The notes below the pieces were generated by a model. It was not told the DNA's origin and made no database searches. It saw only the letters and a list, made by a program, of their open reading frames with translations. Of a stretch of 64,000 bases of DNA, positions 22,300 to 49,843 are shown piece after piece. Origin of the DNA: Candidatus Uhrbacteria bacterium (GTDB taxonomy: Bacteria > Patescibacteriota > Patescibacteriia > UBA9934 > GWF2-40-263); NCBI GenBank assembly GCA_026395055.1, contig JAPLZK010000003.1, positions 173,987 to 237,986 of the forward strand, written 5' to 3'. The number at the start of each line of letters is the position of its first letter. Position 1 is the stretch's first letter. A program made the translations under genes and the position numbers.

Positions 22300-23943
22300 T
22301 TAAATTGTTCCGGAACCATCTGTTGAGTTTATGACCTCAACGGGCACAACCTGCTTCAGTTGTTTCTTAGAAAGAGAGCCAATAAAGCTAAAGAGTTCTT
22401 CTGAACGTAGAAGCGCAAGGATTCCAAGATACACGACTGCACCTGCTGCACCAGTTACAAAAATCTGTGTAAGAACATGAATGAAGGAGTCGAGTGCGAT
22501 ATGGGAACTTACAAATGCACGAGCAAAATACATCACGATTCCGGAAAGGAGTGCTGCAGGAACCATTTTAAATATTCCGTGCAAGATATTCATTTCATGA
22601 AGAGACCCAACTTTTTGATGAAGTAGAATCCATAAAAGTCCCGCGTTCACACATTCCGCCGTTCCAAACGCCATGGCAAGACCGATGACTCCAAATGTTT
22701 TTGTGAAAAGAAATGCAGATGTAATTCCTAGAATAGCAGAAACGATTCCTGCTGTAAGTGGCGTAACAGTGTCGTGAAGCGCAAAAAACGCACGCGCTAA
22801 AATGTAAACGCACGCTTGTGGAATGAGTGTGAGCGCAAAGAATGCAAGCGTATCAGCAGCGAGAATGGTTGCATTCCAATTAAATGCCCCCGCTCCGACA
22901 ACAACTCGAACGATTTGTGCACGAAGCAAAAGAAATGAAATCGTTGCAGGAATCAAGAAAAACAATAACTGACGGATAGTAGAAGCAAAAACACTCTGAA
23001 ATTGATCCATTCTTCCTGCCGCAATATGTTCTGAAAACGTTGGAAATGCCGCGATCGCATAAGACACACCAAAAACTCCTACGGGGAAAAATTCCACATT
23101 GTATGCGAACTGAAAAATAGTTACAGATCCAACAGCAAGTGTTGTTGCAATGATGGTTAAAAATAAAAAGAGTAATTGATTAATTCCGATACCAACAACA
23201 CGCGGAATCATCATGCGCAACACTTTTTGAACGTCTCTATCACGAAAATTGAATAACGGTTCGTATTTATAGCCTGTACCAATAAGCCCAACAGCCTGCG
23301 TTGAAACATGCATGAGTGCACCCAGAATCACGCCGTATGCAAGACCAATTGGACCAAACCAATTCACAAAGAACAATGCCCCAATTACGATTCCCAAATT
23401 ATAAAAGATGGGCGCAAGCGAATAAAGAAAAAATCGCTTCATGCTCTGAAGAACTCCTCCAAACACCATTGAAACAGATAGGAGGATTTCTGAGAGTAAC
23501 ATGACACGCGTAAAGGAAGCGACTTGTGCTTGTTTGAGATGATCAAAACCAGGTGCAATGATGGCAGCAACTTGATTTGCGAAAATAAATACAATAAACG
23601 CAATGACAATCATTCCAAGCCCTACCAAATGAAGAATGGTGTTTGTAAACTGCCAAGCTCGTTGTCGTTGTAATGGCGCATGATAATACTTTGTGAACAT
23701 TGGGATAAAACTTGCAGACAACGCCCCAATAACCATCAGGTTAAACAAAAAATCTGGCACTTTAAATGCCGCATAATAAATATCAAGCGTATTTCCTGCA
23801 CCAAAGGTTCCTGCAAGAATTCGATCTCGAACCAAACCGACGATATCGCTTAGAAACGAAAAGATGCCGACCAAGATGGCCGCACCAATTACCGTGGTCG
23901 ATTCCGACCCAAAAATCTTAAATAGCTTACTCTTCTTTAACAT
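22300..23943 (-). CDS. murJ: Lipid II flippase MurJ (MviN)
   Basis: 547 aa, 14 TM, MurJ N-terminal signature (LVRDRILAGTFGAGNTLDIYYAAFKVPDFLFNL). Confidence 0.9.
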   Translation of the reverse strand: MLKKSKLFKIFGSESTTVIGAAILVGIFSFLSDIVGLVRDRILAGTFGAGNTLDIYYAAFKVPDFLFNLMVIGALSASFIPMFTKYYHAPLQRQRAWQFTNTILHLVGLGMIVIAFIVFIFANQVAAIIAPGFDHLKQAQVASFTRVMLLSEILLSVSMVFGGVLQSMKRFFLYSLAPIFYNLGIVIGALFFVNWFGPIGLAYGVILGALMHVSTQAVGLIGTGYKYEPLFNFRDRDVQKVLRMMIPRVVGIGINQLLFLFLTIIATTLAVGSVTIFQFAYNVEFFPVGVFGVSYAIAAFPTFSEHIAAGRMDQFQSVFASTIRQLLFFLIPATISFLLLRAQIVRVVVGAGAFNWNATILAADTLAFFALTLIPQACVYILARAFFALHDTVTPLTAGIVSAILGITSAFLFTKTFGVIGLAMAFGTAECVNAGLLWILLHQKVGSLHEMNILHGIFKMVPAALLSGIVMYFARAFVSSHIALDSFIHVLTQIFVTGAAGAVVYLGILALLRSEELFSFIGSLSKKQLKQVVPVEVINSTDGSGTI

Positions 23944-25171
23944 GAATTTGTTTTAAAGTAGGTTCATTGGTCTTTTTTGCAGGAGTTTTTTTTGTTTTCA
24001 TTTTTATCCAAGCTATAAACGCCCCAAGAAGTGCGATCCCGAGAAGTGAGAGCAAGATGATAATAAGCGGGTTTGAAAAACTAAAAAAAGTTACTAGCAC
24101 ATCCGCAGACTCTTCCGAGATACTTCCATTTTCGTCTGTCGTCTTGAGCGTGACATGATATGAACCAGCCTGCGTATAAACATGTGTCGCGCTCGTCTTG
24201 CTTGAATGAACACCATCCCCAAAGTTCCATTCGTAAACGAAACGATCTTGAACGGGAGCAATCAAATGAAATGCAAATGTATTCCAAGAACTTTTTTCGT
24301 ATGTAAATACGGCGTTTGGAGAAATCTTTACTTTTGTTGAATTTGTGACGGAAGTTTCAACGATGGGGTCTGAAACCAATTTGGCTGTTCCACCAGCCGC
24401 GCTTGGAGAGTTAGATGCAATCTGCACGACGCCATTCTCCGATTTTACGATCGTATCAACCTGAATTGGTTTTTCTGTTTTTGATGGTTCAACCTTTTGA
24501 ATGATTTTGATTGGTACGGGTTTTTCAATAACCCAACGCTTTGGATCGAGCGGATACGCATCATGTGCATCGTCGACTCCATCGCCATCCGTATCTGTTA
24601 AACGTGGGTTTGTTCCCAACTCTGACTCAACAGCATTTGTTAAACCATCGCCATCAATATCGTCGTCACACGCATCCCCAATCCCATCATGATCAAGATC
24701 TGCTTGATCAGGGTTTGCAACAGTCGGACAATTATCTGATGCGTTTTGCGCCCCATCATGATCATTATCTGGTACAGGAGTGAACATCCCTGTAATAGCG
24801 ACGTTATTGTCCAGATTAACATCCGCGGGTTTTGTTCCACTAATAACGGTTCTGATATTAAATTGAGCATCGGGAACAACAAAATCTACAAAGACTTCTT
24901 CTGGGTCACTTCCTGCCACAACAGAAATAACTTGCGGTTGATCAATGGCCGTACTCCCTTGATAGAAGGTGACGTATCCTGTGACATCAACCGTTCCAAT
25001 ATTTTGAACTTTTGTATAAATACGAACCGTATCACCGGAAACAAACGGTGATTTCGAAAAACGAATATCCGACGCATTCACACGCAAGTCCGCCGTTGCA
25101 GCATGCGCAAAAGCAGGGGCGGAAAGGGCGATACAGGCAAAAAGGGCGAAGAACCCAAGACGTTTTAACAT
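23927..25171 (-). CDS. Cell-surface protein with thrombospondin type-3-like Ca-binding repeats, a PKD domain and a C-terminal TM anchor
   Basis: Signal peptide; D-x-D-x-D-G repeats (DNDHDGAQNASDNCP...DQADLDHDGIGDACDDDIDGDG...DTDGDGVDDAHD); a PKD-like segment (WNFGDGVHSSKTSATHVYTQAGSYHVTLKTTDENG); a hydrophobic helix plus KKTKKTPAKK tail. Confidence 0.65.
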   Translation of the reverse strand: MLKRLGFFALFACIALSAPAFAHAATADLRVNASDIRFSKSPFVSGDTVRIYTKVQNIGTVDVTGYVTFYQGSTAIDQPQVISVVAGSDPEEVFVDFVVPDAQFNIRTVISGTKPADVNLDNNVAITGMFTPVPDNDHDGAQNASDNCPTVANPDQADLDHDGIGDACDDDIDGDGLTNAVESELGTNPRLTDTDGDGVDDAHDAYPLDPKRWVIEKPVPIKIIQKVEPSKTEKPIQVDTIVKSENGVVQIASNSPSAAGGTAKLVSDPIVETSVTNSTKVKISPNAVFTYEKSSWNTFAFHLIAPVQDRFVYEWNFGDGVHSSKTSATHVYTQAGSYHVTLKTTDENGSISEESADVLVTFFSFSNPLIIILLSLLGIALLGAFIAWIKMKTKKTPAKKTNEPTLKQIHVKEE

Positions 25172-32817: not shown

Positions 32818-34118
32818 AGAAGTTCGTTCAGTGTTTCTACATCTTCACGCAGCACAAAGAAATCCGTAAAGCGGATTTTTTCGTTGTATTTTTTCAACAG
32901 GTCTGAGTATTCCATCATTGGCACGTACTCGACACCATGCAAAACCTTCTTGGCCACAAAAATTGGCTGCATGCCTTCTTTTTTTTCGCCAAGCTGTGTG
33001 AGTCGGTTTCCAACAGAGTGCGTGAAGTAGCGGATATGATTCTTTTCACAAAGCTCTGTGAGTTCTTCAAGGGTGTTTCGATCTACTTCAACCTGATCTT
33101 GCAAACGCAACACACGACGTGCGGGTTCACGACGCATCAGATGTCCGCTCCAGTAATTCTTTTCTTTCTTTGCGGCTTCAAACATCATCTCAATGACTGC
33201 ACCATCTCTCAGATCTGCATACTCATACGGATCCGTTGGAATCTCTAACGTAATTTCTTTCGAGAGAATCGCTTGTTCAAGATAATGTGTGAATCCGGCT
33301 TTTGTTTTGTGATAATAAACTTGGTCGATCATGTGATAACGCGCGAGAAGAAAATCTTCAAACGCACGCACACCATTCTCGGTTAACGTAAAGATGAGCT
33401 CTCCCTCTTGCTCCACAATCCCCATCGAGGAAATAAGCCAATCGAGGTCGTAATTCCCATACGCAACACCACAATAATAACTATCGCGCAAAAGGTAATC
33501 CATGCGATCACAATCGACTTCACCGGAGATAAGACCTTTGAGAACTCTGTGCAAACTCGGAATACGAATCATGAGATTTTCAAAGAAGTGCGATGGCTTC
33601 ACACCTCCATGCACAAGGGACGCGACGTCTTGTGCAAACGCGCGATCCAGAACGTCTTCATCCGCGAGTGTTTGGATCATAAGCACACTGTAATCTTCGT
33701 GTGCGGCGCGACGCTTTTCCGGTCCATGCTTCCACCACGTCCAATCAAGGGGAAGATCGTTAAAGTTTGGAAAGACCACTTCGGACGCGTGTGAGAATGG
33801 ACCGTGACCGATATCATGCAACATGCCGGCCATGCGCACCATTTGTCCAAGCGCGTTTATTTCATCGTTCTGCAAACGTTCACGCGGAATGCGTGAGCTT
33901 GTAATGAAACGACCAAACAGACGACCCGCAACATGCATGGCGCCAAGACAATGCTCAAAACGATTGTGGACCCCTCCTGGGTACACGTACGACTGCAAAA
34001 ATCCCAATTGGCTTATGAAGCGTAATCGTTGAAAAAACGGATGGTCAATGACAGATTTTTCAAACGCATTAAATGTAATACGTTTGTGAATCGGATCGCG
34101 CAGTTCAAATTCGGCCAT
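32814..34118 (-). CDS. HD-domain phosphohydrolase of the dGTPase/SAMHD1-like dNTP triphosphohydrolase family
   Basis: HNRFEHCLGAMHVAGRL ... MLHDIGHGPFSH motifs. Confidence 0.75.
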   Translation of the reverse strand: MAEFELRDPIHKRITFNAFEKSVIDHPFFQRLRFISQLGFLQSYVYPGGVHNRFEHCLGAMHVAGRLFGRFITSSRIPRERLQNDEINALGQMVRMAGMLHDIGHGPFSHASEVVFPNFNDLPLDWTWWKHGPEKRRAAHEDYSVLMIQTLADEDVLDRAFAQDVASLVHGGVKPSHFFENLMIRIPSLHRVLKGLISGEVDCDRMDYLLRDSYYCGVAYGNYDLDWLISSMGIVEQEGELIFTLTENGVRAFEDFLLARYHMIDQVYYHKTKAGFTHYLEQAILSKEITLEIPTDPYEYADLRDGAVIEMMFEAAKKEKNYWSGHLMRREPARRVLRLQDQVEVDRNTLEELTELCEKNHIRYFTHSVGNRLTQLGEKKEGMQPIFVAKKVLHGVEYVPMMEYSDLLKKYNEKIRFTDFFVLREDVETLNELL

Positions 34119-34127
34119 ACAAAAAGA

Positions 34128-34787
34128 TTAGTTCAAAGGAAGCTGTAGAATCAGATCTTGCATCAAAGCTGGATCTTTATCAAACATGGATGTTCCGTGC
34201 CCTAAACTATTCTTCTCGATCCAGATTGTTTGTGAGGGATTTAGTCTGTGAAGTTCCATACAGCTTACAGCGGACTCTCGATCGTCATCATCTGAGGAAA
34301 CAAGAACTACACGTTGACCCTCATGAAGCTGCGTAATGAATCCATCTGTCTTCACACCACGATAATTCAGCCCCGGTGATAAAGCGATCACAAACGGAAT
34401 CTGTGCATGCTCAAACGCAAATTGAATCGCAAGATTCGCCCCAATGGACGCACCAATGACAATAATTTGAGATTCCTCGAATCCATGTTGCTGCAAAAAG
34501 TGAAATGCCGCCTCGACATCTAGAATCTTTGCTTGCTGCTCTGCCTCTGTAAATTTTTTATAATCAAGTTTCCCTCTCATGATACTTTCTCCATGCCCGC
34601 GCTCATCAATCGCGACCGATGTATACCCTGCTTTTTCTAGTTCATTCGAGAAATTATTCCAACTTTCTTTTACAGCTGGCATCATGTGTAACAAAATCAC
34701 CGCACCACGAGGATTCTCGGGGGTGCGGTAGATTCCGGCAATATCAATACCATCGGCAGTTCTTATTGTGATATGTTCCTGATCCAT
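34128..34787 (-). CDS. Alpha/beta hydrolase
   Basis: VILLHMMP..., nucleophile elbow GASIGA, C-terminal Asp/His region; 219 aa. Confidence 0.75.
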   Translation of the reverse strand: MDQEHITIRTADGIDIAGIYRTPENPRGAVILLHMMPAVKESWNNFSNELEKAGYTSVAIDERGHGESIMRGKLDYKKFTEAEQQAKILDVEAAFHFLQQHGFEESQIIVIGASIGANLAIQFAFEHAQIPFVIALSPGLNYRGVKTDGFITQLHEGQRVVLVSSDDDDRESAVSCMELHRLNPSQTIWIEKNSLGHGTSMFDKDPALMQDLILQLPLN

Positions 34788-34788
34788 A

Positions 34789-37293
34789 TCAATCGAATTT
34801 TACGCTTTGTCCTACGTGCAACTTTCCAGATGTTGGTTGTTCAGGTGATTTCTCTGCGGGTTTTTCTACTGGTACCTCGACCGGTTTCGTATCAGGCGGT
34901 GGCACAACAATAGGTTCTGTGACAATCGGAGCGTGTGGAACTTCAACCCTTGGCTCTTGTCGCTCTGGTCGTTTTTGTTCTTGAAGAGATTTTAAGGAAA
35001 TAGTTTGTCCGGTTTGTGATAGTTGTGTGGTGATTTCACGGCGAACTTCTTGTGCTCGTGTATCAGAAATACGTTCAGATGCTCGAGGTGTTCCAGGTGA
35101 ATGAGCACTGGACTGCGGAGATTCTAAGCCAGTTCCTGTTTTCTTTTTGCGTTTACGCTTGCGTTTGCGTTTTTCTCCTTCGAGGACGGGGGCAGCCGAA
35201 TGTGGCGCTTGAGGCTCATTCGTTGTTTGTGAAGGAACGCGCGACAAATTCCCCATCGGTCGAACGGGTGTTGTTATGGGCGGAGACACTTGACCCCGCG
35301 CTGGAACGAGCGGTTGCGATTGCGGCTTTGATTCTTGAGGAACTCGAATTACAGGTTCGCTAGGCGTGTTTACAACAACAGGTTTTTGTTCAACACGAAC
35401 AACAGGCACTGGAATAATTGGTGCCTCGACAACAAGTTTTGGTTCTGGTTGAACAGGAGTTGGTTGTGATAATTCTGGTTTTGGAACAGATTCGACGACA
35501 GGTTGCGGTTTTGGCGCAACAACCACGGGTTCGGATCTTCTTTGTTCCATTGGTTGCGCGGTTGCGACGGGTTTTTGTTCCGGAATCTTTTCGTTCATCT
35601 GAGGTTCCTCTACAACAACCACCTCTACAGGCTTTGGCATGAGTGTTGAAAGAGAAATGGTTGGTTCGTCTGGTAACTTATGATCTTCAACTTCCTGAAC
35701 TTCCGATGAACGCATCTCACGAGGAGATGCTTCTTTGACAGGAACCTTTGGTGGAAGATTGCGTGTATCTGCTGGCTTACCCCCCGTTTTTCCTCCACGA
35801 TTATTCTTTTCCTCACGCACAATCTCAATACAATCTTCACAGTAAATTGGACGTGAGCGATCAAGTTCTACAGGCAAAACCATTTTTTTGCCGCAACGCG
35901 AACAATCATATTCAAATTTTGGCTTCTTTGCGTCCTTTGCTGCCACCTTGTCTGTTTTCTTTTTTTCTTCCGCTTCTGCAAGCATGGTATCAACATCCAT
36001 GTTTCCCATTCCGCTCCACGTCAAAATTTGTTCTTCAATAAATCCACGTTCTTTTGCGTAACGTTCTCGAGAAACTTTAATGACACGCTCTTCTGAATCT
36101 GTCTTTTGAGAAATTGGCGGAAGCGTGATGGCAGAAAACGGCTGACTTGTTACTCCGTTGATGAGCAACTTTAAGTACACGTTATATTTTGGAAGATTGA
36201 TAATGTCTTCTGGTAAAAAACGTGGGGCAAATTCTGTTTCCATGTACTTTGCGTCCGGAGAACCCACACGAAACGAAATAATTGTTCCGACGTTACCAAA
36301 AACCGCTTCACGCACTTCATCTGTAAGCTGCGCAATGTACTGGTGAGCAATGGTTAAACACAAACGATACTTACGTGCCTCAGACAAAATCCCAGCAAAA
36401 GAATCCACAGCAAAGTTTTGGAACTCATCAACGTACAAGTAAAAGTCCATACGGTCTTTTTCTTGCATGTCTACACGTTCCATGGCGGACAATTGCAATT
36501 TCGTAATCAACAGTCCTCCAAGTAAACGAGAACTATCTTCTCCAATACGTCCCTTGGAAAGGTTAACGATGAAAATCTTTCCAGAGTCCATGATTTCACG
36601 AATGTTGATACTGGATTTCACCTGCGCAACAATGTTTCTGATCACAGAAGCAGACAAAAACTGTCCAATCTTGTTTTGGATTGGAGCCACAGCCTCCTGC
36701 GCGTATTTTTCATTATACGAAGCAAACTCTCTCAACCAGAATTGTTTCACCACAGGATCCGTCACATTCGAAACAATACGCTTGCGATAATCTGCATCTG
36801 ACAACATGCGGTTGATTCCAAGCAGCGTTGATCCTTGGTTATCAAGCAATGCGAGAATCGTGTTGTTCAAAATGTACTCCATACGGGACGACCATTGGTC
36901 TTCCCAAATCTTTTTGAAAACTCCCATCATTCCACTTGCGACCAAGTGTTTATGTCGTTCAGAGACGGCCTCCAGGATATTAAATCCAACCGGATATTCC
37001 GCGTCAGATGGATTGAAGTACACAACATCGTTAATGCGCCAGCTTGGAATGTAATTGATGAGCTTTTCTGCCGTGTCTCCGTGAGGATCCACGTAACAAC
37101 AACCGTGTCCTGCGTAAATATCAGAAAGGGTGAGGTTCTCAAGGAGAACCGTCTTTCCCATACCTGTTTTTCCAATCACATACACATGTCGACGGCGATC
37201 GTCGGTTTTGATTCCAAATTTCGTCATCGCATTTCGGAAGTTTGTCTTCGCAAAATAGTTGACCTCGTTTTCATGTTCGTGATTGTAGCCCAT
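34789..37293 (-). CDS. VirD4/TraD/HerA-like (FtsK-HerA superfamily, T4 coupling-protein-like) ATPase with a C-terminal zinc ribbon and a long disordered Pro/Val/Glu-rich tail
   Basis: Walker A VIGKTGMGKT, Walker B LYVDEFQNF, and a TrwB/TraD-like C-terminal AAD motif (VFGNVGTIISFRVGSPDAKYMETEF). Zinc ribbon CSRCGKK...CEDC at about aa 460-480. A tail of roughly 350 aa rich in P/V/E/K with a KRKRKRKRKKK run. Confidence 0.7.
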   Translation of the reverse strand: MGYNHEHENEVNYFAKTNFRNAMTKFGIKTDDRRRHVYVIGKTGMGKTVLLENLTLSDIYAGHGCCYVDPHGDTAEKLINYIPSWRINDVVYFNPSDAEYPVGFNILEAVSERHKHLVASGMMGVFKKIWEDQWSSRMEYILNNTILALLDNQGSTLLGINRMLSDADYRKRIVSNVTDPVVKQFWLREFASYNEKYAQEAVAPIQNKIGQFLSASVIRNIVAQVKSSINIREIMDSGKIFIVNLSKGRIGEDSSRLLGGLLITKLQLSAMERVDMQEKDRMDFYLYVDEFQNFAVDSFAGILSEARKYRLCLTIAHQYIAQLTDEVREAVFGNVGTIISFRVGSPDAKYMETEFAPRFLPEDIINLPKYNVYLKLLINGVTSQPFSAITLPPISQKTDSEERVIKVSRERYAKERGFIEEQILTWSGMGNMDVDTMLAEAEEKKKTDKVAAKDAKKPKFEYDCSRCGKKMVLPVELDRSRPIYCEDCIEIVREEKNNRGGKTGGKPADTRNLPPKVPVKEASPREMRSSEVQEVEDHKLPDEPTISLSTLMPKPVEVVVVEEPQMNEKIPEQKPVATAQPMEQRRSEPVVVAPKPQPVVESVPKPELSQPTPVQPEPKLVVEAPIIPVPVVRVEQKPVVVNTPSEPVIRVPQESKPQSQPLVPARGQVSPPITTPVRPMGNLSRVPSQTTNEPQAPHSAAPVLEGEKRKRKRKRKKKTGTGLESPQSSAHSPGTPRASERISDTRAQEVRREITTQLSQTGQTISLKSLQEQKRPERQEPRVEVPHAPIVTEPIVVPPPDTKPVEVPVEKPAEKSPEQPTSGKLHVGQSVKFD

Positions 37294-37308
37294 AACGTAA
37301 GGTGAGGA

Positions 37309-38934
37309 TCAAACAGGAAGATCAGGTGGGGTAAATAATTCTTCGTCAGATGCGTCTGCGGGAGACGTATCCCCGAAACGACCTTTTGGTAAAAAGGCCT
37401 CTGCGTCTTCATGTTCTATGTCTGTAGGTGCTTTCAAGTGTGGAAGTGTTTCCGGTAATGGTTCTTTTGAAGTGACATATGTTCCTGCAAGACGAGATTC
37501 CGCAGATTCGTGATGTTCCATTGGCATTCCGCCTGGAAGAGGAAATTCATTATCCCCCGCTCCAGGCAACGTGTTCTCCAAGAATGTTGTTGGCAATCCA
37601 ACAGGAGGTTCTGCACGACGTGCTTCTGATTTCTTGATGAGTGGAGCTTTGATACTGATCGTTGGAAAATGCCAAAGCGTTGCCAACTCTTCTGCATTCA
37701 AATAAACAGGATTCGCCCCAATTCCCCAACTGCGCCCTTGAAACGCCTTCATGAGGATTGTTTGTTTTTTTTCATAATCCCACTTCTGCCAGAAGTAATC
37801 ATCCTTTGGAACAGAGGGACCATGCATCTTAAATGAATTCAAGTTCAAGTGAGAATACTGGTTCAAAATTCCCTTAATGATGGTTACACGATCTCCTTTT
37901 TTATAAACTGCCTTTTGCGCGCAATACACAATACGAATCTTCACGGCATGTCCAACCTTTATGGTTTTCTTCATGATGGCCTTTGCTTCATCTTGTTGTG
38001 CGGGACCAAGTTTAAATGCTTTCCAGGGATCTGCTTCTTTTGTTGCTTCTGACGCCATTCCAAAAAATGGCGCGAGATCGATTTCCGTAGCGTGAGCAAT
38101 TAATTCAAATGGTAATTTAAAAACAGTTTGTGCTGCAGCAACAAGGTCATTCTTCTTTGCCGCCTTATCTTCAACACCGAACGTTTTGTTTACATGTGCG
38201 ATTCCCGCCTTTTTCCATTCATGACCGGTTGGCTGAATAACCATCTGAAACCAAAAATGCTCCCCCGGTTTCATTTTAGACATTTGTTCGAGCGTGTAAC
38301 CAAGAGGATCTTTAATTTCTCCTGTCATTTGGTCTTCAAAATCCACATACGTTCGAATGGGAAAATGAGATTCCTTGTCTAACGTAAATTCCGCACCCCA
38401 CATGTCATATTTCTCATCGGGAAAGAGTTTTGGAACTTTTGTGACGTAATCATCAACCTCATTCATTTCCGCATCAGGATACTGCGCGTAAATACCTGCC
38501 TCAATGACGTCTCGGAATTTTGCTTGTGTACGAATAATAAACTGCATGTACCCTTCTTCTGAAACAATTTCAAAAGAAAACGTTGGCATGATTTTTCCAT
38601 CAAACCATTTTTCCTTAAATGTAGGACTAGATTTTGCCGCGTACAGTGCCGCAAATAAGTTTTCAAGCGCCTTTGGGGTTTGTTCTGTCATGGACGGAAC
38701 GTCAACCGCAAGACAAATATATTTTTGTTTTGCCGCGAACACTCCTTGTCGTTCTGCAAGCCACAATTCTGAAAAACCCCACAGAAGTGTTGTGAGGACA
38801 GGGATCCAACCAAACCAGACCAAGAGATCAAAAAAAATGACATCAATCGGTTGATTGAGGAAAGAAAGTGAAATCATTGGGACAGATGATTGCGCGGATT
38901 GTTGGATGATCTGAATCGCAAGCATGGGAAACAT
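37309..38934 (-). CDS. Hypothetical membrane protein (N-terminal TM hairpin plus about 450-aa soluble domain and an acidic Pro-rich C-terminus), co-operonic with the VirD4-like ATPase
   Basis: TM segments (VIFFDLLVWFGWIPVLTTLLWGF); no recognisable domain; 15-nt gap to the ATPase gene. Confidence 0.55.
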   Translation of the reverse strand: MFPMLAIQIIQQSAQSSVPMISLSFLNQPIDVIFFDLLVWFGWIPVLTTLLWGFSELWLAERQGVFAAKQKYICLAVDVPSMTEQTPKALENLFAALYAAKSSPTFKEKWFDGKIMPTFSFEIVSEEGYMQFIIRTQAKFRDVIEAGIYAQYPDAEMNEVDDYVTKVPKLFPDEKYDMWGAEFTLDKESHFPIRTYVDFEDQMTGEIKDPLGYTLEQMSKMKPGEHFWFQMVIQPTGHEWKKAGIAHVNKTFGVEDKAAKKNDLVAAAQTVFKLPFELIAHATEIDLAPFFGMASEATKEADPWKAFKLGPAQQDEAKAIMKKTIKVGHAVKIRIVYCAQKAVYKKGDRVTIIKGILNQYSHLNLNSFKMHGPSVPKDDYFWQKWDYEKKQTILMKAFQGRSWGIGANPVYLNAEELATLWHFPTISIKAPLIKKSEARRAEPPVGLPTTFLENTLPGAGDNEFPLPGGMPMEHHESAESRLAGTYVTSKEPLPETLPHLKAPTDIEHEDAEAFLPKGRFGDTSPADASDEELFTPPDLPV

Positions 38935-38967
38935 ATCGAGAACAGTATAGCAGGTAAAAGCGCAAAT

Positions 38968-39007
38968 AAAAAATCTCGAATTTCATAGAGGAGATTCGAG
39001 ATTTTAT
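38968..39007 (-). terminator. Rho-independent terminator after secF (stem AATCTCGAAT/ATTCGAGATT followed by a U-run on the minus strand)
   Basis: 10-bp inverted repeat at 38971..38980 and 38995..39004, with an A-run on the + strand at 38967..38972. Confidence 0.6.
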
Positions 39008-39016
39008 CTGATACAT

Positions 39017-39940
39017 TTATTTTTTCTTTCCTTTTATCCCCTCCCATGTCACAAGCGCAGGGCTTGCAAGGAAGATAGATGAATACGTTCCCGCAATGAT
39101 TCCTACGATAAGGGCAAGGGAGAACGGACGTGTTGTGTCTCCTCCAAAGAAGAAGATGGCGGTTAAACACAGCAAGGTTGTCATGGATGTGCTAATGGAA
39201 CGACGAATGGTCTGGCGAATACTGACATCAACCGTTGTTTCAAAAGATGGACTGATGTGTTTGAGCAAGTTTTCACGCGTACGATCAAACACCACAATCG
39301 TGTCTGTAATGGAATAACCAAGAACAGTCAGAATGGCCGCTACGAATGCGGTATCAACTTCCCAATTGAGAAACTTTCCAAGAATCGCGAAGACGCCGAG
39401 CGGCACGACAACGTCATGGAATGCGGTGATAATGGTGAGAACACCGTATTTCCATGAAGCAACAGGATGTGTCACTTTACGAAAGGTAAAGGCGACGTAA
39501 GAACCGATGAGCACAAGAATCAAAATGATTCCAAACGCCGCAGACTTTTGTAATTCCTTTCCAATGACTGGACCGATGGAATCAAATTTTTCTTCCGCTG
39601 TTTTGTCTCCGTATGTTTTCTTAAGATCAGACAACAATGCTTGGTGCTGTTCTTCATTTAAACTCTCAAGACGAATGAGCGCTCCGTTCGTGCTTGTTGA
39701 TTGAACAATGACATCATTATGACCAAGTTTTGCAACGTGGTCGCGCAATTCTGTTGTGACAACCGGTTTTTCAAAAGAAACTTCAAGCAAACTTCCTCCC
39801 GTAAAATCGATTCCGAGTTTTAAGCCGAACATTCCGATGGAAACCACACACACAAGCACAATCGCTCCTGAAATGGCGTACCAAAGTTTTCTGTATTTAA
39901 CAATATGGATTTGCATAGGATTATGACTTGTTATCTTCAT
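39017..39940 (-). CDS. secF: Protein translocase subunit SecF
   Basis: SecF signature (GIDFTGGSLLEV) and a 6-TM C-terminal half. Confidence 0.9.
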   Translation of the reverse strand: MKITSHNPMQIHIVKYRKLWYAISGAIVLVCVVSIGMFGLKLGIDFTGGSLLEVSFEKPVVTTELRDHVAKLGHNDVIVQSTSTNGALIRLESLNEEQHQALLSDLKKTYGDKTAEEKFDSIGPVIGKELQKSAAFGIILILVLIGSYVAFTFRKVTHPVASWKYGVLTIITAFHDVVVPLGVFAILGKFLNWEVDTAFVAAILTVLGYSITDTIVVFDRTRENLLKHISPSFETTVDVSIRQTIRRSISTSMTTLLCLTAIFFFGGDTTRPFSLALIVGIIAGTYSSIFLASPALVTWEGIKGKKK

Positions 39941-41999
39941 TTTTCTTTACACCAAAGAGAATTGGTTTGTGTGTCCACTTCCAACCAAAGACGGTATGGA
40001 GATATTGGCGCGCCACATAAATTGCCGTAAACAAACTGAGAACGACTCCAATTCCAAGGGTGAGGGCAAATCCACGAATAAAGCTTGAACTGAACCAGTA
40101 CAACACAACAGAAGAGATGAGTGTGGTGAAGTGACCGTCACGAATTGCAGCCCATGCACGTCGTTCTGCTTCATCTGCGGAGGAGATTAATCCTCTACCT
40201 GATGCGTATTCCTCTTTCAAACGTTCAATAATGAGAACGTTGGCATCAACCGCAATACCAAGAGACAAAACAAGTCCAGCAATACCTGCAAGCGTAATGG
40301 TTACTCCAAAGAGTCTGTACGCAAGCATATTCAATGAAGAGAACAGGAGCAACGCAACAATTGCAATCACACCTGGCAAACGATACATGCCGATCATGTA
40401 AATGGTGACGAGCAAGAATCCGATAAGCGCCGCCATGATACTTTTTTGCAACGAGACAGATCCAAGTGTTGGACCAACAGTTTGTTGTGAAAGCAAGGTG
40501 ACAGGAACAGGAAGCGCACCCGCATTTAAGCGTTGTGCCAAAATCTTTGCTTCATCAAGGGTGAAGTTTCCGGTAATAACCGCACGACCACCATAAATAG
40601 CTGCCTGAACAACAGGAGTTGAAATAGGAGAACCATCAAGAAAAATCGCGATTGGTTTTCCAACGTTTGCGGCAGTGAGTGTTCCAAACAGATCCCCTCC
40701 GTCTTTATCAAACGTGATTCCAACATAAGGATTTCCTGTCTTTTGATCAAATTCTACAACCGCGCTTTGCAATTGCTTTCCAGAAAGTTGTGTGTTTTTC
40801 CAAGGTGACGCTGGAGGCAAAACATCTGCCATGGTGGAAAGCTTCATCGCGATACGTTGAATCTTAAACGCTGGGATCACTTTTTGATCTTGCTTATAAA
40901 TCAAATGGTATCCGAAGTCTGTTTCGACAATATCTGAGATTTTTCCAACAGGAAGCGTTTCTGCAGCCGCTCCAAATGCTGGGACGTATTTATCTGCAGT
41001 TGCGTATCCAAGATCTCCACCATTTGTTGCAGCGCTAGGATCTGTAGAGTTTTTCTTTGCGAGGTCTGCAAAGTTTTGTGGGGTTGCTTCCTTCTTTAAA
41101 TTTGAAATTTGAATATTCGCGTCTATTGCGGACGTATCCTTTGAACATCCCTGCTTGCCCTTTGAACAAATCAAGATGTGCGAAAGATGCATGTTATTTG
41201 CGGTTGTATTTTCAAGCACTTTGAAAATTTCAATAGAACCACCAGATTCAACGGTTTTCCAAAATACAGATCCTGCTTTTGGTTTGTTTTGTGTAAGTGC
41301 TTTTGCGATTTCAGGATATTGGGCAGAATCAGAAGTAATTTTTGGCATTATACCTTTTGTGTCTGCCTTTGCAGCTTCTGTACTTACCTCCGCAACAAGC
41401 TTATCAAAATCTTCTCCTTTTTGTGCACGAAGCAAAACGGCTTGTGCGGCAGCACGGTCTGCCTTTTGCAACTCTGCAAGTTTTGTTTGATCTGCCGCTG
41501 TTGGTTTTGTATCTGTTTTTGATCCTTGTTCTTTAAATTCCAAAACAGGTGTTTCTCCAATTTGTTTAATGGCATCAGAAACATTCAACACACCCGCAAG
41601 TTCCACAATCACACGAGACACTCCGCCTGTTGATGTGGTTTGTACGAGCGGTTCAGAAACACCAAACGCGTTTACACGACGTTCAATCACATCACGAACA
41701 CCAGAAAGAGCGTTTGCGCGATCTTTTTCTGGGATCTCTTTCATGTCCGCAGAATAAACAAGGTGTGTTCCACCCTGCAAATCAAGTCCAAGACGATATG
41801 CATGTTCGTTAAGCACTGGCAAAGAAACGTGCGCTTTCGCTTTTACAAATCCGGCCGTTACATTCCACGCGTGTGGAAAATCATAAAATCCCGCAACAAG
41901 TGTTACGATCAAAAAAACAACGGTTGCAACTTTTGCTTTCCATGGTTTATGAACTTTCTGTGCGTTCTGAGACGTTCGTTTGGTTTTCCAAGTTTGCAT
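39921..41999 (-). CDS. secD: Protein translocase subunit SecD carrying a tandem parvulin-type (PpiC) PPIase insertion in its periplasmic P1 domain
   Basis: SecD N-terminus, P1 segments and 6-TM C-terminus. Inserted at about aa 158-372 are two parvulin-like units, the second with clear PpiC motifs (HLSHILI...NGGDLGYA...VPAF...FGYHLIYK). Confidence 0.85.
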   Translation of the reverse strand: MQTWKTKRTSQNAQKVHKPWKAKVATVVFLIVTLVAGFYDFPHAWNVTAGFVKAKAHVSLPVLNEHAYRLGLDLQGGTHLVYSADMKEIPEKDRANALSGVRDVIERRVNAFGVSEPLVQTTSTGGVSRVIVELAGVLNVSDAIKQIGETPVLEFKEQGSKTDTKPTAADQTKLAELQKADRAAAQAVLLRAQKGEDFDKLVAEVSTEAAKADTKGIMPKITSDSAQYPEIAKALTQNKPKAGSVFWKTVESGGSIEIFKVLENTTANNMHLSHILICSKGKQGCSKDTSAIDANIQISNLKKEATPQNFADLAKKNSTDPSAATNGGDLGYATADKYVPAFGAAAETLPVGKISDIVETDFGYHLIYKQDQKVIPAFKIQRIAMKLSTMADVLPPASPWKNTQLSGKQLQSAVVEFDQKTGNPYVGITFDKDGGDLFGTLTAANVGKPIAIFLDGSPISTPVVQAAIYGGRAVITGNFTLDEAKILAQRLNAGALPVPVTLLSQQTVGPTLGSVSLQKSIMAALIGFLLVTIYMIGMYRLPGVIAIVALLLFSSLNMLAYRLFGVTITLAGIAGLVLSLGIAVDANVLIIERLKEEYASGRGLISSADEAERRAWAAIRDGHFTTLISSVVLYWFSSSFIRGFALTLGIGVVLSLFTAIYVARQYLHTVFGWKWTHKPILFGVKKNEDNKS

Positions 42000-43896: not shown

Positions 43897-46659
43897 TTAT
43901 GCTCCGTGACACTTCTTATATTTCTTTCCGCTTCCACACGTACATGGATCATTTCTTCCCACCTTGTCATCATTCGATGTGCTTGCAACGGACGAATGTT
44001 CATTTGATGTTGTGGGTGCGCCTGCGAGGCGTACGCCCGCACGACTCAGGAGAGAGTCGTTGAGTTGCGCCTGAACCTTCATGTCCACAGCATGGCGAGC
44101 GAATTTGAAGAACGAGAATGTGACATCTTGGTTAATGACCGTGAGAAGCTGTTGGAACATGTCGTATCCTTCACGCTTATACTCAATCAAAGGATCACGC
44201 TGACCGTACCCTCTAAGGCCAATACCTGTTCTAAGAGATGTCATTGCAGACAAGTGCTCAATCCAAAGCATGTCGATGCTTCTGATGAGTGTTGCACGTT
44301 CAATGTGATAAACATCCATCTTTACTTCAAACAAGTCATGGATTTTGCGATACTCGTCTTTCACAACAGACATGATTGTATCAATCATCTTTGTGCGAGT
44401 TTCTACAACGTCATGCTTGTCCTTTGCGTTGTGAATGGTTATTGCTTCTAGTTTTGATTTGGATTCCGGATCAAGGGTGACGATTGTGTTCACGGTTTCA
44501 ATGATTTCTTTTGTATTCCAGTCCCCTGACCCGACGTCTTCCGCCCCTTCTGCTTTATGTACAGGGGAAAGAACTTTTTCACCCGTGTGAAATAAGACAA
44601 CTTGCTCTACTTCCCCTTCGATAATATCAAGAACGCGTTCCTTTAACGTTTCTGGTTCTTTTTCAAATGCCTCAAGCACTTCAATACGACGACCATAAAT
44701 AACTTCACGATGCTTGTTTAAAACATCATCGTATTCAAGCAAGTGCTTACGCATATCAAAGTTATGACCCTCAACACGCACCTGCGCTTTTTCAATGGAA
44801 CTTGTGATCATGCCGTTCTCAATAGGCATATCGTCTGGAATTCCGAGTCTGTCCATCATGTTTTTTGCGCGATCTGAACCGAAGATACGCATCAGGTCAT
44901 CTTCCATGGAGATATAAAATTGTGTAGAACCAGGATCCCCTTGTCGACCAGATCGACCACGGAGCTGGTTGTCGATGCGTCTCGATTCATGACGTTCTGT
45001 TCCAAGAACGTGTAATCCTCCCAATTCTCGAACACGAGCTTCGTCCTCTTTTGTTCCTGGATTTCCTCCGAGCTTAATGTCTACTCCACGACCAGCCATG
45101 TTTGTCGCAACCGTTACAGCCCCAACACGACCGGCCTGCGCAATGATTTCTCCTTCACGCGCGTGGTTTTTTGCATTCAAAATTTCATGCTTTACTCCAG
45201 CACTCGTTAGCAATTCAGAAAGCAATTCGTTTTTTTCAACAGACGCCGTACCAACAAGAACGGGTTGTCCAGCGAATTGGCGTTCTTTAATTTCACGAAT
45301 CACTGCCTCAAACTTTCCAAGTTCAGATTTAAACACACGATCCGGAAGATCTTTACGCGCAACCGCAACGTTCGTTGGAATCTCTGTCACTTCGAGCTTA
45401 TAGATCTTTGAGAATTCTTCTGCTTCTGTTGCGGCAGTTCCTGTCATTCCAGACAGCTTAGTATACATGCGGAAATAATTTTGGAACGTGATTGTGGCGA
45501 GTGTCTGACTTTCATTTTGAATAGGGACGCCTTCTTTTGCTTCAATCGCTTGGTGAATTCCTTCTGAGAAACGTCGGCCCTGCATGAGGCGACCTGTAAA
45601 TTCATCAACAATAAGGACTTCATTGTTTTGCACAACGTAGTGAACATCTTTTTGATAGTTTGCACGCGCGCGAAGCGCAGAATCCGCAAATCGCTGAAAC
45701 ATGATTCCAGAACCTGCTGCATACAAGTTTTCAATTCCAAGGGCTTTTTCAATTTTTTCAACACCCGCATCTGTAAACGCGGCCGTGCGAAGTTTTTCAT
45801 CAACGTTATAATCTTCATTTTCGATGAGCGTTTTTGTGATGTGCGCTAAACGCACATACAGCTCATTCGATTTTTCTGCCGGAGCGGAAATAATAAGTGG
45901 TGTACGCGCTTCATCAATCAAAATAGAGTCGATTTCATCAACGATGGCGAAATGGAGGCCGCGCATAACCATGTCTTGAACGGTTGGCGCCATGTTGTCA
46001 CGCAAATAATCAAACCCGTATTGGTTATTTGTACCGTACGTGATATCTGCCTTATACGCATCTCTGCGATCAACTGGACGCAAAAAATCTTCACGAACTT
46101 TAAACGATTCGATTTGGATCTGTTCTTCTGATCCCACTTCTTGTTCTGGATGTTTGAATAAAGGATCGTACAATAATCCAGTTTCATGCTGAATAACTCC
46201 AATACTCATTCCAAGGAAATGAAAAATTTGCCCCATCCAAACCGCGTCACGACGCGCAAGATAATCATTCACGGTGACAAGGTGACATCCTTTTCCTTCA
46301 AGAGCGTTCGCGTACAGTGCGAGCGTGGAGGTAAGGGTCTTTCCTTCACCCGTGCGCATTTCTGCAATCATTCCTCTGTACAAAACAATTCCACCCATGA
46401 GCTGGACATCAAAGTGTCTTTGACCGAGTGTGCGCTTTGAAGCTTCTCTTACAACCGCAAACGCTTCATACAAAAGACTATCAACACTTCTTCCTTGTGC
46501 GATCATTTCACGAAACTCAACTGTCTTGTGTTTCAGCGCTTCATCCGAAAGCATGCTGATCTCACCTTCCAGTTTATTGATTTTTTCTACTTCACCCTGT
46601 AATTCCGCAATCACCTTTTTATTCGGGTCTCCAAAAATCAGATTATAGAATTTGCTCAT
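43897..46659 (-). CDS. secA: Protein translocase ATPase SecA
   Basis: 920 aa with a DEAD-like motor (AEMRTGEGKTL) and a C-terminal zinc-binding tail (CTCGSGKKYKKCHG). Confidence 0.95.
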   Translation of the reverse strand: MSKFYNLIFGDPNKKVIAELQGEVEKINKLEGEISMLSDEALKHKTVEFREMIAQGRSVDSLLYEAFAVVREASKRTLGQRHFDVQLMGGIVLYRGMIAEMRTGEGKTLTSTLALYANALEGKGCHLVTVNDYLARRDAVWMGQIFHFLGMSIGVIQHETGLLYDPLFKHPEQEVGSEEQIQIESFKVREDFLRPVDRRDAYKADITYGTNNQYGFDYLRDNMAPTVQDMVMRGLHFAIVDEIDSILIDEARTPLIISAPAEKSNELYVRLAHITKTLIENEDYNVDEKLRTAAFTDAGVEKIEKALGIENLYAAGSGIMFQRFADSALRARANYQKDVHYVVQNNEVLIVDEFTGRLMQGRRFSEGIHQAIEAKEGVPIQNESQTLATITFQNYFRMYTKLSGMTGTAATEAEEFSKIYKLEVTEIPTNVAVARKDLPDRVFKSELGKFEAVIREIKERQFAGQPVLVGTASVEKNELLSELLTSAGVKHEILNAKNHAREGEIIAQAGRVGAVTVATNMAGRGVDIKLGGNPGTKEDEARVRELGGLHVLGTERHESRRIDNQLRGRSGRQGDPGSTQFYISMEDDLMRIFGSDRAKNMMDRLGIPDDMPIENGMITSSIEKAQVRVEGHNFDMRKHLLEYDDVLNKHREVIYGRRIEVLEAFEKEPETLKERVLDIIEGEVEQVVLFHTGEKVLSPVHKAEGAEDVGSGDWNTKEIIETVNTIVTLDPESKSKLEAITIHNAKDKHDVVETRTKMIDTIMSVVKDEYRKIHDLFEVKMDVYHIERATLIRSIDMLWIEHLSAMTSLRTGIGLRGYGQRDPLIEYKREGYDMFQQLLTVINQDVTFSFFKFARHAVDMKVQAQLNDSLLSRAGVRLAGAPTTSNEHSSVASTSNDDKVGRNDPCTCGSGKKYKKCHGA

Positions 46660-48121: not shown

Positions 48122-49726
48122 TTACTTACAACCCGGTGTCCATTTATGTGTGCAGGTGTTCCCAATACAGGCATCAACCGTGCACCCCTGACCATCGTCG
48201 TTGCATACACCCTCTTGCGGGTTTGCATATGGGAGGAAAACACATCCTTTCTTTGCTTCATCACACGCGTCCGACGTGCACCCGTTTCCATCACTACACA
48301 CGTATGCGTCATGAACGGAACACATCGAATCTTTGCACTTGTCGTTGATGGTACACAGGAGTCCATCGTCGCATTTCAGGGCGTTTGGAACGTGCGTACA
48401 GAGCATGCTTGCACAGACATCTGTTGTGCAAACGTTTCCGTCGTCCAAACATTTTGTGCCATCCGGTTCTTGCGGGTGCATGCATTTGCCGTCCGCGCAT
48501 TTGTCTTGCGTACAGGCATTACCATCATCCGTGCATTTGCCGTCAGATGACGCAGCGTGTTTGCAACCCGTGAATGGATCACACGAATCCGTTGTGCACG
48601 GATCGTTGTCGTTGCAATTCAACGTACTTCCGCCGATGCATGTCCCCGCAGCGCACTGTGAAAGTGCGGTGCAAATATTTGCGTCATCACAGGCAGAACT
48701 GGTGAGAGGTGTATGTTTGCATCCACCATCAGTGTTGCAGACATCTGTCGTACAGCTATTGCCGTCGTCGCAGAGATCTTCATCGGTCTTGCCGTCACAA
48801 TCGTCATCCTTTCCATTACAGGTTTCGGGTGACGCATCCGGCGCATTGCAGATGGCTTTGCCGTCGCTGCAGGCAATGAACTTTCCAAGGCATGTGCCGA
48901 ATTCGTTCTTCTTGTCACATTGAACACCAAATGTATTCTCGTCGATGTTGTCCGTCTTTGCATCGCAGTTGTCGTCTTTCCCGTTACAGATTTCCTGTTC
49001 AGGGACTTGACCGACACATCCAGACAATCCATTCACCGTACACGTACGAGTACCCGCACAAGACCCAAAAGGATTTGTGTTGGCACAGGCCGTAGAAAAA
49101 CCTTTCTGGATGGCAAAGGGCGAACACGCACATGTTGCGTTTCCAGAAGGGAGACACTGTGAGCTTCCAGCCCCGCTCTTTGGATCCGTGACGAATTTGC
49201 ACGTATATCCTTTGGGGCAATCATCGCTCACTGGGTCACAGGTCACTCCACAAAAACTCCCCGCGTCACCATGACTGATGCACGCATTGTTCGAGTCTTT
49301 GGCAAAGTTGCATTGATCGTTTGTCGTGCACGGATTACACAGGTTCAACAAGCGAGAAACACAGACGAACTGAACATCTGTTCCACCACCTACAACCTGT
49401 CCGCATGCGTATCCACTTTGACACGACTGTACACAGATCATCGAGCACTTTTTCCCGTTCTCTGTTTGTAAACAAAGACCGGAATCACAATCATCTGAAT
49501 GTTCACACGCGTAGCCAAACTGACCCGGCGTGATCATGACATCACTTTGCGTTGAGACAAGTACGTCCGTGAACACATCTGCCGTGAGTACCGCATCGAG
49601 TTTTGCATCTCCCGCAACGTCTGCGTTCGATGTGTCCCCATTGGACGGCGCTAAGATCTGATCAGTACCACATCCAATCGATGTGCAGATGAGGCAAAAA
49701 AGACAGATTTTTTGAGAGAGCGTCAT
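48122..49726 (-). CDS. Cysteine-rich tandem-repeat lipoprotein (about 16 copies of the C-D-D-G-N-x-C-T-x-D-x-C motif)
   Basis: Signal/lipobox-like N-terminus (MTLSQKICLFCLICTSIGCG) with an AGGAGG ribosome-binding site 8 nt upstream of the ATG at 49726. Repeated DGNxCTxDxC units such as DGNACTQDKCADGKC and DGNVCTTDVCASMLC. Confidence 0.7.
   Translation of the reverse strand: MTLSQKICLFCLICTSIGCGTDQILAPSNGDTSNADVAGDAKLDAVLTADVFTDVLVSTQSDVMITPGQFGYACEHSDDCDSGLCLQTENGKKCSMICVQSCQSGYACGQVVGGGTDVQFVCVSRLLNLCNPCTTNDQCNFAKDSNNACISHGDAGSFCGVTCDPVSDDCPKGYTCKFVTDPKSGAGSSQCLPSGNATCACSPFAIQKGFSTACANTNPFGSCAGTRTCTVNGLSGCVGQVPEQEICNGKDDNCDAKTDNIDENTFGVQCDKKNEFGTCLGKFIACSDGKAICNAPDASPETCNGKDDDCDGKTDEDLCDDGNSCTTDVCNTDGGCKHTPLTSSACDDANICTALSQCAAGTCIGGSTLNCNDNDPCTTDSCDPFTGCKHAASSDGKCTDDGNACTQDKCADGKCMHPQEPDGTKCLDDGNVCTTDVCASMLCTHVPNALKCDDGLLCTINDKCKDSMCSVHDAYVCSDGNGCTSDACDEAKKGCVFLPYANPQEGVCNDDGQGCTVDACIGNTCTHKWTPGCK
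48150..49250 (-). repeat. Coding tandem repeat array (units of about 78-84 nt, Cys-rich motif) inside the lipoprotein gene
   Basis: Periodic recurrence of the DGNxCTxDxC peptide motif. Confidence 0.55.
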
Positions 49727-49843
49727 CAAGGAAACCTCCTGGCATGGGCAAGCAACATGCCCAGAGATCTTTTCAGAAAAAAATGAAATTGTCAATAGTT
49801 TAGATAAAAAAATCCTCCTTTCAGGTGAAAGAAGGAAGAGGTG

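Follow-up and report, generated by a model that had tools for sequence, protein, structure and literature searches.

The locus considered here raises the question of what a long, apparently unstructured tail does on a motor protein that resembles the coupling proteins of type IV secretion systems (T4SSs). The gene lies on the reverse strand, at positions 34789..37293, of a 64,000-nucleotide stretch of contig JAPLZK010000003.1 (hereafter the window) from a Candidatus Uhrbacteria bacterium, and encodes an 834-aa ATPase of the type IV coupling protein (T4CP) kind, in which the motor is followed by a zinc ribbon and then by some 350 low-complexity residues. The answer favoured below, to which a probability of roughly 0.55 is given, is drawn by analogy with known systems: the protein may be a translocation ATPase, tethered to the membrane, that uses its tail to recruit partners or cargo, the tail then being no junk but a conserved interaction arm that bears motifs. 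The features on which the argument rests are listed below with the evidence for each in brackets.

34789..37293, reverse strand: whole gene, an 834-aa orphan T4CP-like ATPase with zinc ribbon and disordered tail (open reading frame (ORF), Pfam, frame check)
36004..37293, reverse strand: ATPase core, aa 1-430, a nucleotide-binding domain with a putative all-alpha domain, of the TrwB/VirD4 type (Pfam, Foldseek, phmmer)
37150-37173, reverse strand: Walker A motif GKTGMGKT, aa 41-48
35932..35994, reverse strand: charged helical connector between core and zinc ribbon, aa 434-454 (AlphaFold helix)
35800..35916, reverse strand: zinc-ribbon module, aa 460-498 (Pfam/TIGRFAM, Cys spacing, AlphaFold)
35830-35904, reverse strand: Cys motif CxxC-x17-CxxC, CSRCGKKMVLPVELDRSRPIYCEDC, aa 464-488
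34831..35799, reverse strand: disordered spacer rich in Pro, Val, Glu, Lys, Ser and Gln, aa 499-821 (AlphaFold, composition)
35641..35679, reverse strand: motif 1, KLPDEPTISLSTL, aa 539-551 (alignment and motif scan)
35140..35172, reverse strand: polybasic run KRKRKRKRKKK, aa 708-718 (hexanucleotide repeat at 35146-35172)
34984..35001, reverse strand: second ISLxxL (ISLKSL), aa 765-770 (closest relatives only)
34792..34830, reverse strand: extreme C-terminal motif, SGKLHVGQSVKFD, aa 822-834 (homologue ends)
34789-34791, reverse strand: stop codon of the 834-aa gene
37309..38934, reverse strand: partner protein DUF8128 (PF26449), 541 aa (upstream gene; precomputed PF26449)

Reading frame and architecture

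According to the ORF listing, a single ORF spans the ATPase core, the zinc ribbon and the tail, and its frame is the only one open across the tail, each of the other five containing 8-16 stops over the 343 codons. The ATG of the downstream gene begins 1 nt past the ATPase stop codon. An identical protein in NCBI, from a Candidatus Uhrbacteria metagenome-assembled genome, is named 'type IV secretion system DNA-binding domain-containing protein'. Two antisense ORFs on the plus strand (35052-35363 and 35418-35642, from the same listing) are assumed to arise only as a side effect of low complexity on the coding strand, and an Rfam search of both strands of 34000-39500 returned no RNA element.

A preliminary description of this DNA had proposed a coupling-protein-like ATPase followed by a CxxC...CxxC zinc ribbon, a disordered Pro/Val/Glu-rich tail of about 350 residues and an 11-residue Lys/Arg run, and had named a frameshifted fusion with a separate gene as the alternative to a real extension. 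This outline of the protein stands: the frame is continuous and the other five are closed, the core matches coupling proteins best by sequence and by fold, the exact spacing CxxC-x17-CxxC follows the core (the ribbon begins 4 nt beyond the coordinate 35900 given earlier), and both the tail, at 346 residues, and the Lys/Arg run are as described.

More than 8000 homologues were found, and the ribbon, tail and motif counts given below are those of the best 120, which come from Candidatus Uhrbacteria and other Patescibacteria. Gene order was compared in 84 species-representative loci, whose lineages include Uhr-, Magasanik-, Doudna-, Nealson-, Moran-, Buchanan- and Staskawiczbacteria and Paceibacter, and tail statistics for the wider family come from 142 diverse cluster representatives in which the core is complete. 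Core identity across the 84 Patescibacteria loci is 58-85%, and related PG[QED]x[IV]xF ends recur there. Many of the GTDB records used (L009, L011, L013-L015, L017 etc.) carry the title 'uncultured Gammaproteobacteria bacterium' or 'Candidatus Saccharibacteria'; they contain clear orthologues with synteny of Patescibacteria type, and these titles are probably wrong.

The motor domain

Kinship with coupling proteins is indicated by Pfam, where TrwB_AAD_bind (PF10412) matches aa 27-342 with 37.6 bits against a cut-off of 20.5 and TraG-D_C (PF12696) reaches 25.6 bits against 22, while NCBIfam gives only weak TraD/VirD4-like matches. In Foldseek the best matches of the AlphaFold model, which was built with a 109-sequence alignment, are TrwB (1e9s; E 3.5e-6), Cag-beta and DotL, with VirB4 (E 3.9e-4) and HerA next; these rankings are approximate, as the core is modelled with only moderate confidence. 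A helical block predicted at aa 112-222, again at moderate model confidence, lies inside the PF10412 match. Sequence searches of the PDB with phmmer point the same way, DotL and TrwB being the sole relatives and no VirB4 matching the motor domain. Nor does the protein qualify as a VirB4, in which N-domain and motor share one polypeptide: the N-domain-like fold sits here on a separate protein. The ATPase itself has no signal peptide or membrane segment (maximum 19-residue hydropathy 0.97).

Outside the Patescibacteria, the nearest relatives are coupling proteins encoded on mobile elements of monoderms and archaea, and they sit in conjugation-type clusters. In Embleya, a plasmid relative lies within a cluster of PrgI, VirB4-like ATPase, relaxase and NlpC-P60 genes, and further relatives are found among haloarchaeal plasmid genes and in Bacillus phage G, where gp156 stands beside a VirB-like gene.

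Two other identities were considered and set aside. The PADLOC model mad8, a methylation-associated defence system ATPase, weakly matches 34789-37293 on the reverse strand (E 3.7e-16), which probably reflects shared superfamily membership alone; a role in defence was rejected, as only this match and matches to HerA models speak for it and a defence context is absent. A phage origin was likewise rejected: there is a match to phrog_5156, but the gene stands in a housekeeping context in the window.

The partner protein DUF8128

The gene directly upstream encodes DUF8128, a family for which no mention was found in the literature searched. Precomputed annotation gives PF26449 for the identical protein P0121 and for the 120 listed homologues apart from the last one, and neighbouring genes carry the name DUF8128 in three loci; the local Pfam scan gave no PF26449 match, this model not being part of that Pfam copy. 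The protein has one N-terminal hydrophobic helix (aa ~29-57), and the positive charge of the stretch after it suggests an N-out/C-in topology. Its 360-aa domain is modelled confidently, and the predicted fold resembles the VirB4 N-terminal domain and also EccE. The likeness to VirB4 emerged from fold comparison alone, as the DUF8128 profile found nothing in the PDB by sequence. The C-terminal tail of DUF8128 is acidic and disordered and ends in a conserved PP[ND]LPV, so that both partners terminate in conserved peptides.

DUF8128 stands directly upstream of the ATPase gene in 66 of the 84 loci, often with a 4-nt overlap. In many other lineages the two are fused: among the best 150 cluster representatives, 62 are single chains in which DUF8128 precedes the ATPase (hidden Markov model E down to 1e-84). 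The fused layout is also found in phrog_5156 and in Bacillus phage G gp156 (L088, 2861-5338), and the split one on a haloarchaeal plasmid. With adjacency here and fusion elsewhere, the two proteins almost certainly operate as one unit. Its plan of membrane helix, VirB4-N-like domain and motor resembles VirB3/VirB4, but the motor is of the coupling-protein type. The fused proteins (e.g. P0268, P0274, P0285) measure 750-1100 aa and have much shorter tails, with a median of 82 against 256 aa.

The zinc ribbon

Orthologues retain both ribbon and tail: the Cys motif occurs at the same place, around aa 460, in 117 of the best 120 homologues, and the tails of these ribbon-bearing proteins are rich in P, K, E, S and V and measure 93-429 aa with two exceptions. 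Across 109 homologues C464, C467 and C488 never vary, and conservation of C485 is at least 90%. AlphaFold predicts the ribbon with a mean pLDDT (predicted local distance difference test) of 85-92, as two short beta-strand pairs followed by a helix at aa 486-498. About a third of the best 120 homologues have a second or third ribbon further down the tail, each extra copy trailed by a basic helix of the type CLEKIRERRK, and it is mainly homologues with a second copy that carry precomputed PF23477 assignments.

The module may belong to the domain family TIGR04272/PF23477, which includes small Methanosarcina mazei proteins with identical Cys spacing and to which the matches are weak but specific. 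The copy here is a predicted zinc binder, judging from its sequence, and is placed in the tail of a motor ATPase. Archaeal CxxC-x17-CxxC members from Methanosarcina have been shown to bind zinc and are annotated as RNA-polymerase-like (PMC12704099), and the JGI annotation of homologues reads RPC12/RpoP. No further zinc-ribbon protein of this type was seen in the window or in the 84 related loci, of which only about half have the ribbon at all.

The disordered tail and its conserved motifs

The 346 residues after the ribbon contain 16.5% Pro, 13% Val and 11% Glu, one Phe and no Trp, Tyr or Cys, and AlphaFold predicts no secondary structure from about aa 500 to 820, where pLDDT is below 50. In three respects the earlier picture of this tail changes. 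It had been called basic, but its net charge of +7 falls to -4 when the single Lys/Arg run is removed. It had been said to be built of PxPxV or EPxV-type units, but P.P, P.P.V and P[EKQ]P occur at shuffle-level frequency and EP.V is only nominally enriched (74/2000 shuffles); a modest enrichment is seen for the dipeptides PV/VP and VV alone (25/2000 shuffles each). A repeat-built tail was rejected, given that half-versus-half alignment is no better than shuffles and motif-count shuffles lack any PxPxV periodicity; at the DNA level, Tandem Repeats Finder and a repeat finder found no tandem or dispersed repeats building the tail, only the 6-nt repeat that encodes the Lys/Arg run. It had also been taken for an unusual architecture; a long tail is in fact the rule in the Patescibacteria family, with a median of 191 aa among the 142 representatives and 256 aa in those that are unfused.

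The main content of the tail, which the preliminary description had overlooked, is a set of short conserved islands in a fast-evolving spacer. The first, 50-80 residues past the ribbon, has the family consensus [VI]EKLPDEPS-[IVL]SLxxL; its [IVL]SLxxL part is present in 86 of 117 tails where shuffles give an expectation of 0.5, and L548 and L551 are at least 90% conserved. The second is the polybasic run. A Lys/Arg run of at least 11 residues arose in none of 5000 shuffles of the protein, and a run of 5-13 residues occupies the equivalent place in most close homologues, a range of lengths for which in-frame slippage of the 6-nt tandem repeat (35146-35172) could account. The third is the extreme C-terminus, [ST]G.[LIV]..GQ[ST][IV][KR]F[DE]-COOH in consensus, where the Gly residues at -12 and -7 and the Gln at -6 are nearly fixed and F833 is invariant; 110 of the 120 homologues end in F[DE]. 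Both ISLxxL and the terminal GQxIxF look like peptide-docking motifs, not nucleic-acid binders.

The wider family varies in its modules. The 142 representatives have at least three types of C-terminal motif, PGQxIxF, PEDVLKxxL and FEEPII (other clades, e.g. P0307, P0339 and P0369, end in EVPEDVLKxxLE or xFEEPII), which suggests clade-specific docking partners, and a long Lys/Arg run occurs in just 9 of them. A long disordered tail with a terminal motif is thus the family rule, whereas the ribbon and the Lys/Arg run are clade-specific inserted modules. The Magasanikbacteria locus L036 is ribbon-less and keeps VSLRDL (VSLxxL), a polybasic KKKRKRKRNRKRK and an end ...QIISFD (IxFD).

Proposed role and alternative explanations

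In the favoured reading, the motor would be a cytoplasmic, hexamer-type translocation ATPase of the T4CP lineage (TrwB/VirD4/TraD) that has lost its own N-terminal anchor, and the translationally linked DUF8128 would supply the membrane anchor through its one helix and its VirB4-N-like cytoplasmic domain. The hexamer and its position at the cytoplasmic face are what family knowledge leads one to expect, and anchoring via DUF8128 is likewise presumed; since the topology of DUF8128 puts the complex on the cytoplasmic face, the tail would be cytoplasmic too. The C-terminal 370 residues would then form a flexible recruitment arm, with the zinc ribbon beside the motor and a disordered spacer of about 320 residues that presents at least three docking elements: LPDEPxISLxxL, the polybasic run and the terminal GxLxxGQxIxF[DE]. 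A ring would have six of these arms, which could sweep the cytoplasm and bring partner proteins, anionic cargo or both to the membrane-bound motor. Nucleic acid would be the obvious candidate cargo for the ribbon and the polybasic patch, whose putative binding of it is plausible; the ligands of ribbon, run and motifs, and the identity and direction of the cargo, are presumptive.

Several points weigh against this reading. The core model is moderate in confidence (mean pLDDT 59.8 overall, with some core segments below 50). The ribbon scores below curated thresholds in this copy, for PF23477 (zf_Tbcl_2; E 1.1e-4, 22.3 against 27) as well as for TIGR04272 (E 3.1e-5, 23.6 against 36), and it is found in just 12 of the 142 representatives; with most distant members of the family lacking it, the ribbon cannot be essential to the core mechanism. 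The last 13 residues rise to a pLDDT of ~67-76 in the monomer model, so the predicted tip could dock on its own core, which would mean regulation and not recruitment. A t4cp homologue of the cultured Saccharibacterium S. epibionticum, which may or may not be this orthologue, has been reported non-essential (PMC12102498).

An arm that binds nucleic acid directly is an unlikely, though by no means far-fetched, alternative. Ribbon, basic helix and Lys/Arg run would here bind DNA or RNA non-specifically and feed it to the hexamer pore, and the machine would be a nucleic-acid translocase, for instance one that imports host DNA or RNA or exports DNA, not a protein-recruiting hub. The T4CP lineage includes DNA-dependent motors, with TrwB the best structural match; the archaeal and JGI annotations of the ribbon family, the basic helices that follow the extra ribbons of homologues and the strongly non-random polybasic run all agree with such an arm, as does the uptake of host RNA by Patescibacteria through an unknown route (bioRxiv 10.64898/2026.06.21.733656). 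However, ribbon and Lys/Arg run are limited to a subclade, the tail as a whole is not basic, the best-conserved elements are those that resemble peptide-docking motifs, no relaxase, ComEC or channel gene is linked, and deletion of comEC has no effect on viability in S. epibionticum (PMC12857230).

Autoregulation by the tail is doubtful. The C-terminal motif, and possibly the Lys/Arg run, would dock on the protein's own ring or on DUF8128 and gate ATP hydrolysis or the pore, the long spacer giving reach only. It would explain why the predicted tip gains confidence after 320 disordered residues; the acidic disordered tail of DUF8128, with its conserved tip, could pair with the basic run, and Cag-beta/CagZ (structure 8dol) is a known case of a T4CP regulated by the partner it binds. 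DSSP, however, detects no strand pairing at the tip, and the four-fold variation in spacer length suits a capture arm better than a calibrated plug.

A more far-reaching possibility, and an improbable one, is that DUF8128 and the T4CP-like ATPase form a third, hitherto unrecognised branch of the superfamily of VirB4 and coupling proteins and serve nearly all Patescibacteria as a housekeeping membrane translocase inherited beside secDF. In this reading the zinc-ribbon/polybasic arm would capture nucleic acid, such as the host-derived RNA or DNA needed by these nucleotide-auxotrophic epibionts, or the translocase would pass specific cargo to the export machinery. If this third-branch reading were true, the tail motifs would specify the cargo or adaptors of a machine at the heart of the epibiotic lifestyle.

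It is very unlikely that the tail is a non-specific low-complexity appendage, acting as entropic bristle, spacer or condensate driver and carrying its motifs as mere lineage inheritance. The spacer does evolve fast in sequence and in length and has a composition typical of disordered linkers, but the motifs are conserved far above chance and above the neighbouring spacer (by the counts and the invariant Phe given above) and survive in lineages where partner identity is only 27-40%, and almost all unfused members keep a long tail in spite of their reduced genomes. The envelope (peptidoglycan/S-layer) interaction suggested in the preliminary description is hard to credit: some wall-spanning proteins have Pro-, Val/Glu/Lys-rich stretches and the gene adjoins secDF, but the ATPase lacks both signal peptide and membrane segment, its tail follows a P-loop motor that is cytoplasmic, the charge distribution of DUF8128 places its large domain in the cytoplasm, and Pfam detects no wall-binding domain. 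Finally, an annotation or assembly artefact, in which the ATPase would be frameshift-fused to a separate downstream gene, can be dismissed, its sole pointer being the abrupt composition shift after aa 498, since the frame is unbroken with all others closed, the same architecture recurs in homologues from more than 100 independent assemblies (NCBI, JGI, ENA, Logan), and a conserved motif stands at the very C-terminus.

Genomic neighbourhood

The genes of the Sec system that lie near the pair are the following.

39017-39940, reverse strand: secF, upstream of DUF8128
39921-41999, reverse strand: secD, upstream of DUF8128
43897-46659, reverse strand: secA with a SEC-C zinc motif, 6.6 kb upstream of the ATPase gene

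SecD and SecF precede the DUF8128-ATPase pair in about 50 of the 84 loci, even where DUF8128 identity is down to 27%, and the order SecD-SecF-DUF8128-ATPase is conserved across Patescibacteria classes, a linkage that may be functional or may simply be inherited gene order. Downstream of the ATPase gene here lie those of an alpha/beta hydrolase, an HD protein and mnmA. The 64-kb window contains no T4SS/virB4 or relaxase gene, and none turned up in neighbour gene tables and ORF lists for the flanks of those related loci that were inspected.

Paceibacteria-type loci (L046, L050, L052, L054, L055, L057, L075, L079; about 1600-2650) have a gene inserted between secF and DUF8128, which encodes a protein of ~335 aa with a sigma-70 region-4-like motif (RRFGL...TLE.IG...TRERVRQIE); downstream they appear to carry pgk-, DHH/RecJ- and RNase H-like genes, as judged from N-terminal sequences alone. 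In Magasanikbacteria-type copies (L024-L048, e.g. L036, 1587-5995) the ribbon and the adjacent DUF8128 are both missing, and the gene of L036, the only such locus inspected, lies downstream of ORFs that by their sequence resemble ftsW and murG; these copies may represent a paralogue or a rearranged locus. The ftsW-murG linkage prompted the idea of an FtsK replacement or a division role, which was set aside because most loci are linked to secDF instead; TM7x, also a member of the Patescibacteria, has FtsK according to a literature listing, which was counted against the idea as well.

Elsewhere in the window, two adjacent ORFs at 48122-51388 on the reverse strand (557 and 514 aa) are rich in Dicty_CTDC Cys repeats (E 7e-14 and 4e-47), and their products may be secreted or surface proteins. 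Beside murJ, a 414-aa protein at 23927-25171, also on the reverse strand, contains thrombospondin type-3 repeats and a PKD domain, with an apparent N-terminal signal sequence as judged by eye.

Comparison with known systems

TrwB of R388, VirD4, Cag-beta and DotL share with the protein described here a P-loop nucleotide-binding domain, and their inserted all-alpha domain has a putative counterpart in it. T4CPs, however, have an N-terminal transmembrane anchor in the same polypeptide, which the present ATPase lacks, its Walker A motif being reached already at aa 41; they are associated with T4SSs and relaxases, whereas this ATPase lies in a chromosomal housekeeping neighbourhood kept across the phylum; and the present motor is paired with DUF8128 and adds a zinc ribbon and a motif-bearing tail of more than 300 residues.

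For the tail, the closest precedents are C-terminal extensions of coupling proteins. In Legionella DotL the extension captures adaptor proteins. In F TraD it is flexible, turns at a Gly and docks on TraM through the aromatic residue at its end (PMC7555446), so that the short acidic tails earlier ascribed to canonical VirD4/TraD proteins are too simple a standard. The tail here recalls this in its predicted flexibility, in G823 and G828, which are nearly invariant, and in F833, invariant at -2, but the tip of TraD is acidic, with Phe as its last residue, whereas the tip here is basic (K/R at -3) and ends in F[DE]. The present tail is also much longer than the TraD and DotL extensions and has in addition the ribbon and the polybasic run, and no homologues of TraM, DotM, IcmS or IcmW were seen. 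The resemblance to TraD and DotL, an analogy, is one of logic, not of sequence.

A second analogy, offered as a lead only, is with the C-terminal tail of SecA, in which a flexible linker and a tiny Cys4-type SEC-C zinc module, about 70 aa in all, serve partner binding. Motor, linker and metal module are alike in the two proteins, but the ATPase families are unrelated (SF2-like against FtsK/HerA-like) and the zinc motif differs.

Orphan T4CP homologues in Patescibacteria were already known: 5,713 VirD4-like homologues have been reported in 2,918 of 3,035 Patescibacteria genomes (about 96%), 148 of them near virB4, with exaptation suggested and their role acknowledged as an open question (PMC12102498). 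That study does not mention the zinc ribbon, and neither the ribbon with its motif-bearing tail, nor the VirB4-N-like partner with its split and fused forms, nor the secDF linkage was found in the literature searched. A clade is now described that combines a membrane-less motor, an anchor protein with a predicted VirB4-N-domain-like fold and a linkage to secDF, with three peptide motifs, a zinc ribbon and a defined partner as testable handles.

VirB4 (TrwK), for its part, has neither a zinc ribbon nor a long disordered tail, and the motor described here is nearer to the coupling proteins. The split and fused forms of DUF8128 and ATPase in bacteria, on archaeal plasmids and in a Bacillus phage also bear on the divergence of VirB4 and the coupling proteins.

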